Positions 17,290 through 19,932 of a stretch of 64,000 bases of DNA are shown in pieces (position 1 is the first letter of the stretch; each line of letters opens with the position of its first letter). This DNA comes from Bdellovibrionota bacterium. Lineage in GTDB: Bacteria > Bdellovibrionota_C > UBA2361 > JBGSMV01. The notes under the pieces were generated by a model, which was not told the DNA's origin, ran no database searches, and was given only the letters and a program-made list of their open reading frames with translations. A program made the translations under genes and the position numbers. The DNA is taken from contig JBGSMV010000080.1 in the NCBI GenBank assembly GCA_041739995.1, positions 1 to 64,000 of the forward strand, written 5' to 3'.

Positions 17290-17991
17290 ATGGCTCAGCA
17301 AGTCTTAATTATAGATGACGACTTTTCTTTCAAACGAGTACTCGAAATTCGCCTCAAGAGCTTCATGCCCGATGCTTTGATAACGCACTTTGGAACGCTG
17401 AACGAAGCGCGAACGAATCTTCAGGCTAACAAGGACAGGGGCTCCCCTGCAGCTGATTTTGACTTGGTAATAATAGATCAGCACCTACCCGACGGGCACG
17501 GGAGCGATTTCGTCGGTGAAGGCTGGTTTCAAGACAGGGCGGTTCTTTCTGTAAGCTCCGACGATGCTCCCGAAATTCCCGGTGCTTCTGTGCAAGCCGG
17601 AGCTACGTTTTTTCTTAATAAGCGTAATGTTTCAGAGCCGCTTTTTCGTCCGCTCGTACTTGGCATAATAGATCGCAATCGCATGGTGCGAGCTCTCGAA
17701 GAGTCGAGACTGAGCGCTGCAATAGTTGAGAGTGTCAGGACGCTCGTCAGCACCTTGCGTCATGAGATAAACAACCCTCTCGGTGCAGTGCTTGGAGCAG
17801 CGTATCTCTTGCGCACTGCCCCGAATGCAACTTCTGAGCAAAAGGAAGCGGCCGACCTGGTTGAGTCGAGTGGCCAGCGCATCAAGCACGTACTTGAGCA
17901 GCTTTGTAAGGCGGTTGAACTAGCCCCAGTCGATAAGGCGAATCAGCGCGTATTCCACATTCCGGGCGACAAGCCCTGGGGGCAAAAATAG
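17290..17991 (+). CDS. receiver domain plus HisKA dimerisation/phosphoacceptor domain, no HATPase domain
   Basis: IIDDD, IIDQHLPDG and FFLNK receiver motifs; H-box LRHEINNPL; protein ends about 75 aa after the His. Confidence 0.85.
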   Translation: MAQQVLIIDDDFSFKRVLEIRLKSFMPDALITHFGTLNEARTNLQANKDRGSPAADFDLVIIDQHLPDGHGSDFVGEGWFQDRAVLSVSSDDAPEIPGASVQAGATFFLNKRNVSEPLFRPLVLGIIDRNRMVRALEESRLSAAIVESVRTLVSTLRHEINNPLGAVLGAAYLLRTAPNATSEQKEAADLVESSGQRIKHVLEQLCKAVELAPVDKANQRVFHIPGDKPWGQK

Positions 17992-18215: not shown

Positions 18216-18761
18216 TTATGACTTCACGCTCGTGAATGGCATAAGTCCCAGGGTCTGGGCACGCTTAATTGCCTTGCTGACCTTGCGTTGATTGTAAGCG
18301 CTAAGACCAGTCAAGCGACGCGAGAGCATCTTGCCACGCTCGCTGAGGAAACGGACGAGAATTGCAACGTCTTTGTAATCAACGCTCTTGGTCGGATCTT
18401 CCATGAAAGGATCGATCTTCTTACGACGCTTGAAGAGCTGCATACGCTGGATCGGAGGAAGGTACTCACGTTGACGAGGACCTTCACCATCATCCGAGCC
18501 GCCAGATCCCCCGCCCTTACCGCGATCTTCGACAACCTTCATAGGTCGGCCGTTGAGCGCACGATTATTCAGTGTTTCGATAGCTTTTTGAGCATCCTCT
18601 TCGCGCTCCATTTCCACGAAAGCGAAACCTTTAGAGCGCTTGGTCTCACGGTCCGTGGCGATGACCGCACTAATGACACCGCCGAGCTCAGCAAAAAGAT
18701 CGCGGAGGGCACCTTGGTCGACTTCAAAATCGAGGTTACTTACAAAAAGCTTCTTCGGCAT
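18216..18761 (-). CDS. rpsR: RRM RNA-binding domain fused to 30S ribosomal protein bS18 (zinc-free type)
   Basis: RNP2 KLFVSNL and RNP1 SKGFAFVEM; Gly/Ser linker; bS18 motifs VDYKDV..L.RFLSERGK.L.RR.TG...QR....IKRA..LGLMPF. Confidence 0.93.
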   Translation of the reverse strand: MPKKLFVSNLDFEVDQGALRDLFAELGGVISAVIATDRETKRSKGFAFVEMEREEDAQKAIETLNNRALNGRPMKVVEDRGKGGGSGGSDDGEGPRQREYLPPIQRMQLFKRRKKIDPFMEDPTKSVDYKDVAILVRFLSERGKMLSRRLTGLSAYNQRKVSKAIKRAQTLGLMPFTSVKS

Positions 18762-19068
18762 ACACACTCAAAATTCAAGAGAGACTCACTCGAGCAGCCC
18801 GGCATTGTCTGCGAACGTTAGCCCTAACGGACTGCGCTCGAAGCATGGGCCCAAAGAGGTAAACTCCGCTGGAGCTCAACCACCCAAGGTCTTCATCGGT
18901 TACAAATTATCCCAACTAGGAAAATTCCCTTTGGGAGCCGCGAAGTTATGGGGTTTTCGAAATGAAGTCAAACCTCGAGCGTGGCATCAAAGTCAGCGAA
19001 TGATCACAAATTCAGAGTTCAAAACGCTGTTTCGACTTTCCTACAAAAAGATCAGTAAAAAAAACTAG

Positions 19069-19097: not shown

Positions 19098-19605
19098 CTA
19101 TCGAATTGCTTTCCTGTAGAGAATTTTCACTAGTTCTTTCAGAGTCATAAGCGTTGCTTCGCTCACCGATCTTTGTCGAATATTTGCCGAAAACGTCTCT
19201 ATTGAGTCTCACCAACTGGGTCAAAATAAAGAGGAAATTCAGGTGGATATAGCAGCACGATCGTTCAAGCCTCCCAGTATAGATAGTACAAACAGCTTGC
19301 ACTTCTAGAGAGCAGACTTTTGAAGATTCCAAGTCGAAGTCTCCAAGGCAAAGTTTTCGAAGCGAAGGACGACGCGAACGGAAGACTTGCGGGTAGACAG
19401 ATGTTTCTCTCGACCACTGATTTTCAGCCAAGACGTAGCGTATTCCAATCGCATGTCTCACCTTTGTCGAAGGCCTTGTCGAAGCCCTTTTCGGTCTCCT
19501 TCCTCTCTAAAAATTGTCGGGCTCCTAGTGCCCCGAGCGATCACCTAAGAACAAAAATTTTGTGCCCGTTTATTTTTGAATTACCTCTTCAGGAGCAACG
19601 TTAAC

Positions 19606-19932
19606 ATGAGCAACTCTTCAGCAATGAGCCGATTTTCGCCAGAGCGCGAAGAAGATCTTGAAGCCTATTCGCCAGTAAAAGCTGAGCGAAATCTTTTGGC
19701 TGCGGTACTTTCTCGTGCAATTTGCGATGCGTTTGGCACCGCTCACTGTGAGCGCCACGTAGTACGCAGTGCTCGTCAGTGGCTTTTTGGTAAACTAACT
19801 CCTAAGAAGCCTTTTAGCTTCGCGTGGGTTGCGCTGCATCTTGATCTCGATCCAGTGGCTCTTCAAGAAACACTGCGCGGCTATGAAAAAATGCCGGAAG
19901 AGTTTCAAGAGCGCCTCACTCTGCTTCGATAA
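19606..19932 (+). CDS. small helical hypothetical protein
   Basis: AGGAG RBS at 19591; pattern ERNLL.AVL.RAI.D...AR.W.F...FSF.W....L.LDP. Confidence 0.7.
   Translation: MSNSSAMSRFSPEREEDLEAYSPVKAERNLLAAVLSRAICDAFGTAHCERHVVRSARQWLFGKLTPKKPFSFAWVALHLDLDPVALQETLRGYEKMPEEFQERLTLLR

Follow-up and report, generated by a model that had tools for sequence, protein, structure and literature searches.

We found that the single gene for ribosomal protein bS18 (rpsR) in the genome of a Bdellovibrionota bacterium encodes a fused protein, RRM-bS18, in which an RRM domain is joined through a linker to the N-terminus of a complete bS18. The design is lineage-wide within the GTDB phylum of this organism, and we consider the structural conclusion well supported, namely that a functional RRM is tethered to a constitutive ribosomal protein, bS18. 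A literature search at the level of titles and the openings of abstracts returned no description of an RRM-S18 fusion, in keeping with the original prediction, made from the DNA of this region, in which the architecture was not recognised as a characterised one. Bacterial ribosomal proteins are usually treated as near-invariant, and cases in which they gain a whole domain come mostly from organelles. In this lineage an RNA-binding domain has been fixed, throughout a phylum-level lineage, on a core platform protein at the place where mRNA, the anti-Shine-Dalgarno (anti-SD) tail, bS1 and bS21 meet.

Domain layout of the RRM-bS18 protein

The gene lies on the minus strand at positions 18216-18761 of the window (the whole 64,000-nucleotide stretch of DNA that was analysed), with its ATG at 18761 and its TAA stop at 18216-18218, and its 181 codons specify a protein of 181 aa and 20.4 kDa with a pI of 9.9. 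The arrangement that had been read from the open reading frame, an RRM followed by a linker and a full bS18, was borne out by Pfam and NCBIfam matches, and in the Pfam scan that had been proposed as a check both domains scored far over their cut-offs: RRM_1 (PF00076) at residues 5-74 (E 7e-23, 80.7 bits relative to a cut-off of 20.7) and Ribosomal_S18 (PF01084) at residues 125-174 (E 1e-22, 79.9 bits relative to 21). The NCBIfam S18 equivalog TIGR00165 matched residues 110-178 over 69 of its 70 profile positions (78.6 bits, cut-off 38.75). All of the motifs quoted in the original prediction (KLFVSNL, SKGFAFVEM, GKGGGSGGSDD, KKIDPF and GLSAYNQ) were found in the protein.

The RRM occupies residues 1-80 (18522-18761, minus strand) and is acidic (pI 5.1). 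Its RNP2 motif is L5-F6-V7-S8-N9-L10 and its RNP1 motif K44-G45-F46-A47-F48-V49-E50-M51; G45 and F46 are kept in all 39 fused sequences that we aligned, and F6 and F48 in 38 of the 39. An AlphaFold2 (AF2) model made from a 37-sequence alignment has the beta-alpha-beta-beta-alpha-beta order of an RRM with a pLDDT of ~90, and the top Foldseek matches of the domain were all RRMs, the best being the bacterial RRM protein 7jly (45% identity, rmsd 0.8 over 78 columns). The domain is therefore an RRM by profile, by its RNP1 and RNP2 aromatic residues and by fold order, and its conserved RNP residues suggest that it binds single-stranded RNA. Its nearest bacterial likeness is to the free-standing RRM proteins of the cyanobacterial and Bacteroidota Rbp type (NF058537; 7jly), which consist of a single RRM of ~80 residues with the same RNP motifs. 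These proteins are soluble and usually have a Gly-rich tail, whereas the RRM of RRM-bS18 is covalently joined to a ribosomal protein, and RRM-bS18 scored 90.7 bits against the Rbp_regulator family NF058537, below the family cut-off of 100. Free paralogues of the Rbp type in the same genomes share ~40-50% identity with the RRM of RRM-bS18; in the source genome, a second RRM is a separate small protein.

The linker, residues 81-100 (GKGGGSGGSDDGEGPRQREY; 18462-18521, minus strand), is of low complexity and predicted to be disordered. Among 39 fused homologues its length ranges from 14 to 51 aa, with a median of 23, and its composition is 26% G, 14% S and 11% R. In the AF2 model both domains are confident, the pLDDT is below 50 at residues 83-95 and the pTM is 0.42, values that imply no fixed arrangement of the two domains relative to each other.

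The remaining residues, ~101-181 (18219-18461, minus strand), form the bS18 part, which has a pI of 11.1 and begins with a basic tail, QRMQLFKRRKK, the counterpart of the opening residues of canonical bS18. In PDB sequence searches E. coli S18 residues 4-72 aligned to residues 110-178 of RRM-bS18, and L. lactis S18 residues 4-77 to residues 105-178, from which we conclude that the bS18 part is complete, its basic N-terminal tail included. Relative to canonical bS18 (rpsR; PF01084, TIGR00165), then, the C-terminal ~80 residues can be aligned over their whole length with solved chains, and the additions are the RRM (1-80) and the linker (81-100), ~100 extra residues at the N-terminus.

Copy number, neighbourhood and distribution

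The source genome (G000; 81 contigs, 91% complete) has one S18 match, which is the RRM-bS18 gene itself, and one match to the partner protein bS6. The second, canonical rpsR that the original prediction had suggested looking for was not found in this assembly, whose 91% completeness leaves a slight chance of a missed copy, and RRM-bS18 serves as the sole rpsR found in the genome, a single copy alongside bS6 as in most bacteria. The gene does lie outside the usual rpsF-(ssb)-rpsR-rplI order, as had been noticed: neither rpsF nor rplI is nearby; the two adjoin each other on a different contig, as pth-rpsF-rplI, and no gene separates them. Across the class, rplI directly follows rpsF, with no S18 domain, in 30 of 30 rpsF loci, and pth is upstream of rpsF in 22 of the 30. 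An unrelated Omnitrophota MAG (L072) retains the usual rpsF-ssb-rpsR-rplI order.

That the bS18 part lacks the zinc cysteines was also correct, since the whole protein is free of cysteine, and one suggestion had been that RRM-bS18 equips a specialised ribosome, i.e., that it is a paralogue for stress or low zinc placed on a subset of ribosomes. Alternative Cys-free paralogues of ribosomal proteins are known in other bacteria. However, S18 is single-copy in the source genome and in every one of the 116 lineage genomes in which it was found, so there is no canonical copy with which the fused form could alternate, and no Cys-bearing S18 paralogue of the kind that makes up a zinc-switch (C-/C+) pair was detected in any of them. 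In addition, a bS18 without zinc cysteines is ordinary; in E. coli, too, bS18 is not a zinc protein. We therefore consider a specialised-ribosome role exceedingly improbable.

How widespread is the fusion? The lineage, taken as the GTDB phylum of the source genome, comprises 124 species genomes in one class. We detected S18 in 116 of them, and in 113 of these 116 it lies within an open frame of 170-268 aa. The original prediction had named conservation in relatives as a check on the fusion, and a colinear full-length RRM-to-S18 protein is present in 39 of 40 same-order relatives, which represent 21 families; no S18 match was found in the remaining genome, G032, which is 85% complete. Similarly, in a set of 40 aligned loci (the 20 best same-order matches, the window's own included, and 20 picked from other orders with odd cases included) a single colinear RRM-to-S18 alignment was obtained for 39. 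Of the three exceptions among the 116 genomes, one is G114, in which the RRM and S18 pieces adjoin on one contig with a stop between them, and another is G049, in which the S18 frame is 48 aa long. The recurrence of the colinear protein in these two sets confirms that the fusion is not an assembly accident. As to reads across the linker, a contig from another sequencing run bridges it (18457-18610) with zero differences, which is weak support given that the runs containing this stretch all come from a single study, in which the source sample may itself be included. The study's four DNA runs yielded only short contigs of low depth, with no piece covering the whole gene, and there were no RNA runs among the sequencing runs listed with this stretch.

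The third exception is G048 (92% complete), whose S18 gene starts at a GTG just past the expected end of the RRM. Its S18 keeps the linker and the conserved tail and still adjoins the same small neighbour gene as in its relatives, and the sole RRM found in this genome is a separate glycine-rich protein. The family mates of G048, G050 and G051, carry the fusion. It follows that the RRM can be lost and has been dispensable at least once, and G048 thereby provides a built-in natural control in which the RRM is deleted and the tether and bS18 are kept. We also observed that G096, a single 2.3-Mb contig that is 82% complete, has no S18 with either PF01084 or the fusion profile; rpsF-rplI is present, and its only RRM is a free glycine-rich protein. 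Either the assembly has a gap or errors, or this is a member of its order without rpsR.

In public databases the fusion is hidden by annotation: the name given is plain "S18", and in some entries the protein has been cut back to an internal Met. A word-indexed protein search returned 563 relatives; the best 120 of these 563 all have both Pfam domains, and their source name is "ribosomal protein S18". Public records with the gene are titled as Bdellovibrionota, Oligoflexia, Deltaproteobacteria or Proteobacteria MAGs, and the members of the RRM-bS18 cluster add no taxa beyond the label "Oligoflexia bacterium". With phmmer against proteins clustered at 50%, four of the best 150 matches were of the fused type and the rest were dominated by eukaryotic multi-RRM proteins, and the ESM Atlas returned only the cluster of RRM-bS18's own kind.

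The immediate neighbours of RRM-bS18 encode an ABC transporter, a receiver/HisKA protein, a GH63-like hydrolase and a protein of 118 aa that belongs to no known family. The 118-aa gene (window 19576-19932, plus strand, with a likely start at 19603) is divergent from RRM-bS18 at a distance of ~800 bp; it has no Pfam or NCBIfam family, and its Atlas matches are to "hypothetical" clusters only. A member of this neighbour family, of 109-118 aa, adjoins the S18 gene in 26-29 of the 40 loci lineage-wide, the RRM-less G048 included. The receiver/HisKA gene (17290-17991, plus strand) is convergent with the S18 gene, and its 233-aa product has a HisKA domain and, scoring under the Pfam cut-off, a receiver domain, but no ATPase domain; the gene is a neighbour in 18 of the 40 loci. 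On the strand opposite RRM-bS18 is a 177-aa ORF (18288-18821, plus strand) that recurs in 17 related loci; the simplest interpretation is that it merely shadows the conserved gene and is not a separate gene. A promoter and terminator scan gave one promoter-like site, where 1.3 were expected, and no terminators.

Selection on the RRM and the start of the protein

Within the order, mean pairwise identity is 73% for the RRM (1-80), 42% for the linker (81-100), 87% for residues 101-112, which are the best-conserved stretch of the protein, and 76% for the rest of S18 (113-181). Across the nine pairs that we compared, the RRM and S18 have similar dN values, and in most of these pairs dN of the linker is several-fold greater than that of the domains. 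Synonymous sites are mostly saturated, and where dS was computable omega was 0.04-0.075 for the RRM and 0.043-0.051 for S18. Purifying selection on the RRM is thus as strong as on the ribosomal core, and this, along with the retention of the RNP aromatics, implies that the RRM should act as a binder of single-stranded RNA. A tree of 82 columns separates the fused RRMs from seven free-standing paralogues, with one long outgroup branch falling, at weak support, among the fused RRMs; such a topology would be compatible with a single origin of the fused domain.

Could the real product nevertheless be an ordinary bS18 of 75 aa that starts within this frame at Met107, with the upstream RRM being a separate or decaying frame or an artefact? 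The internal ATG (18441-18443, minus strand) is the start of the 72-75-aa "S18" in some public gene calls, there are 14 public proteins of 40-75 aa that cover the S18 part only, six of the seven short entries that we fetched begin MQLF at the equivalent of Met107, and in the alignment residue 1 of E. coli S18 falls on Met107. Several observations weigh against it. In the 40-sequence alignment several same-order sequences have Thr or Val in the Met107 column, no sequence of another order has Met there, and the bases just upstream of Met107 are CCTCC, which is not an SD. The frame is open through the linker in the 113 genomes noted above, the omega values of the RRM are not those of decay, and the short entry P0273, compared by eye, seems to correspond to the last 75 residues of the fused ORF at locus L012. 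Met107 is probably not a real start, we read the short entries as truncated gene calls, and we regard the possibility that RRM-bS18 is in truth an ordinary bS18 as very slight.

Translation initiation and the possible roles of the RRM

The 16S rRNA of the source genome ends in the canonical GGATCACCTCCTTT (CCUCC anti-SD), and 33% of 531 unambiguous starts have an SD core (GGAG, GAGG or AGGA, between -17 and -4) ahead of them, compared with 10% in a control window, with SD motifs peaking at normal spacing 5-6 fold over background. We had considered that this might be a no-SD lineage and rejected the idea on account of the canonical anti-SD and the normal spacing of that peak. In the ribosomal protein cluster, 8 of 19 genes have an SD core (some of these starts are uncertain), whereas by the same rule 14 of 20 do in E. 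coli. Taken together, the SD counts indicate that many leaders are without a strong SD. A six-domain bS1, in a 578-aa frame, and bS21 are also present in the source genome.

We propose the following mechanism. The C-terminal 80 residues would, as judged from family membership, behave as an ordinary bS18 that pairs with bS6 and binds the 30S platform, and because there is a single S18 gene the fused form would be on every ribosome. The review PMC4611024 describes the N-terminal tail of S18 as contacting the SD-aSD duplex and lining the SD chamber in solved ribosomes, so the RRM would be leashed to the part of bS18 that is closest to this chamber. The flexible Gly/Ser-rich tether of 14-51 residues that joins the bS18 tail to the canonical RRM would confine the latter to within ~50-70 Å of the mRNA exit and anti-SD region, an estimate made for ~20 linker residues. 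There its most likely target would be the part of the mRNA 5' leader that precedes the start site, which leader it could hold or unfold at a standby site alongside bS1, leading to more initiation on leaders with a weak SD or none. That RRM-bS18 enters the 30S subunit, where its RRM sits and which RNA the RRM binds are all points that we infer. The original proposal that a single-strand RNA binder is tethered near the anti-SD and the mRNA exit thus holds up as plausible. If the RRM does touch mRNA, the lineage would be a natural system for studying message choice without, or beyond, SD pairing.

The likeness to bS1 (rpsA) that had also been suggested is one of proposed principle only, that of a flexible RNA-binding module on the platform and mRNA-exit side catching leaders. 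bS1 is built of OB-fold S1 domains and docks non-covalently. As the six-domain bS1 has been retained, the RRM would add to bS1, and the suggestion fails insofar as it implied a replacement.

We favour capture of mRNA leaders by the RRM over binding to rRNA or the anti-SD and over a role off the ribosome or in assembly, and would give it roughly an even chance of being correct. It is favoured because the variable and fast-evolving tether suits a roaming domain and because so many leaders have no strong SD. Against it, bS1, bS21 and a canonical anti-SD are all in place and leave no obvious gap in recruitment, the RRM has been lost in G048, the domain is acidic and no conserved leader element was found.

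The data are equally consistent with binding of the RRM to rRNA instead, either to the single-stranded 3' tail of 16S rRNA, thereby regulating how accessible the anti-SD is, a role played in Bacteroidia by bS21, bS18 and bS6, or to the loop of a nearby helix as a structural addition. There is a known case of an RRM-bearing ribosomal protein, the closest to RRM-bS18 that we can point to, in cS22 (PSRP2) of the chloroplast, a component of a bacterial-type small subunit that is built of RRMs. It resembles our RRM both in sequence (E 7e-20) and in fold (5mmj_v, TM 0.91 to the target, ranking 12th in Foldseek), and according to PMC5737520 it is an rRNA-binding protein of the chloroplast small subunit, free-standing and nucleus-encoded, with two RRMs, and sits at h6/h10 in the foot of the subunit. 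RRM-bS18, by contrast, has one RRM fused to bS18 and is not of the tandem, free-standing type, and cS22 does not lie at the platform. In the F. johnsoniae ribosome, as described in PMC7797042, bS6 and bS18 form a groove that accommodates the 16S 3' tail; the same source states that bS18, bS6 and bS21 are able to hold this tail. The lower SD use in the matched ribosomal protein genes would fit binding of the RRM to rRNA, as would the apparent N-terminal extension of the neighbouring bS21 in the window's order. However, a linker that evolves fast and varies from 14 to 51 residues is better suited to a roaming domain than to a fixed rRNA contact, the AF2 model shows no docked arrangement, and the enrichment of SD motifs at normal spacing implies that the anti-SD is in use. 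Taken as a specific proposal, rRNA binding seems to us rather unlikely.

Does the RRM instead work off the ribosome, or in its assembly, for instance by binding its own mRNA or that of rpsF, so as to keep bS18 in step with bS6 despite the separation of their genes, or by chaperoning the folding of the 16S central domain ahead of bS18 docking? In other bacteria the S6:S18 complex autoregulates the rpsF operon. With rpsR unlinked from rpsF in all 30 loci, operon-based co-regulation of S6 and S18 is gone, and in many relatives the RRM-bS18 gene looks monocistronic, with a hairpin and then a T-run 3' of the stop (by eye). Conversely, there was no common block in an alignment of 21 upstream regions that might be a conserved leader, Rfam at gathering thresholds gave no matches in the window or the rpsF locus, and a regulator needs no covalent fusion, free RRM paralogues being already at hand. 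We consider a role of this kind improbable.

Capture of leaders, the reading that we prefer, can be extended to bS21. In the source genome bS21 (contig C36, 69361-69510, minus strand; ORF 1456-1911 of locus L080, minus strand) lies in a 151-aa frame with an Arg/Gly/Asp-rich stretch of 83 residues before the canonical start. The bS21 frames are 88-176 aa in 19 of 19 same-order genomes with a match (G000 included), and most of those in other orders measure 66-103 aa. A shared motif (ERPKAQP, DRPKPQA or ERAKAGA) lies just ahead of the canonical start, and in G012 and G043, which have Leu in place of the canonical Met, translation has to begin further upstream. The N-terminal extension of bS21 is, from these sequence features, probably real. 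It is tentatively conceivable, although we lean against it, that the RRM and, in the window's order, the Arg/Gly/Asp-rich extension of bS21 make up a built-in leader receptor that reads single-stranded leader sequence so as to select or unfold mRNAs alongside SD pairing and bS1. If so, start sites would be recruited in a third way, one built into a bacterial ribosome and present throughout a phylum-level lineage.

Two other ribosomal proteins of the source genome have unusual termini. The bL9 ORF (positions 651-1343 of locus L002, minus strand; contig C39) is 230 aa from a TTG start, with the conserved bL9 sequence beginning ~28 residues in and a long Ala/Glu/Ser/Gly-rich tail following the L9 domains, and bS6, at the same locus, ends in an acidic DDFGFDSDSD tail.
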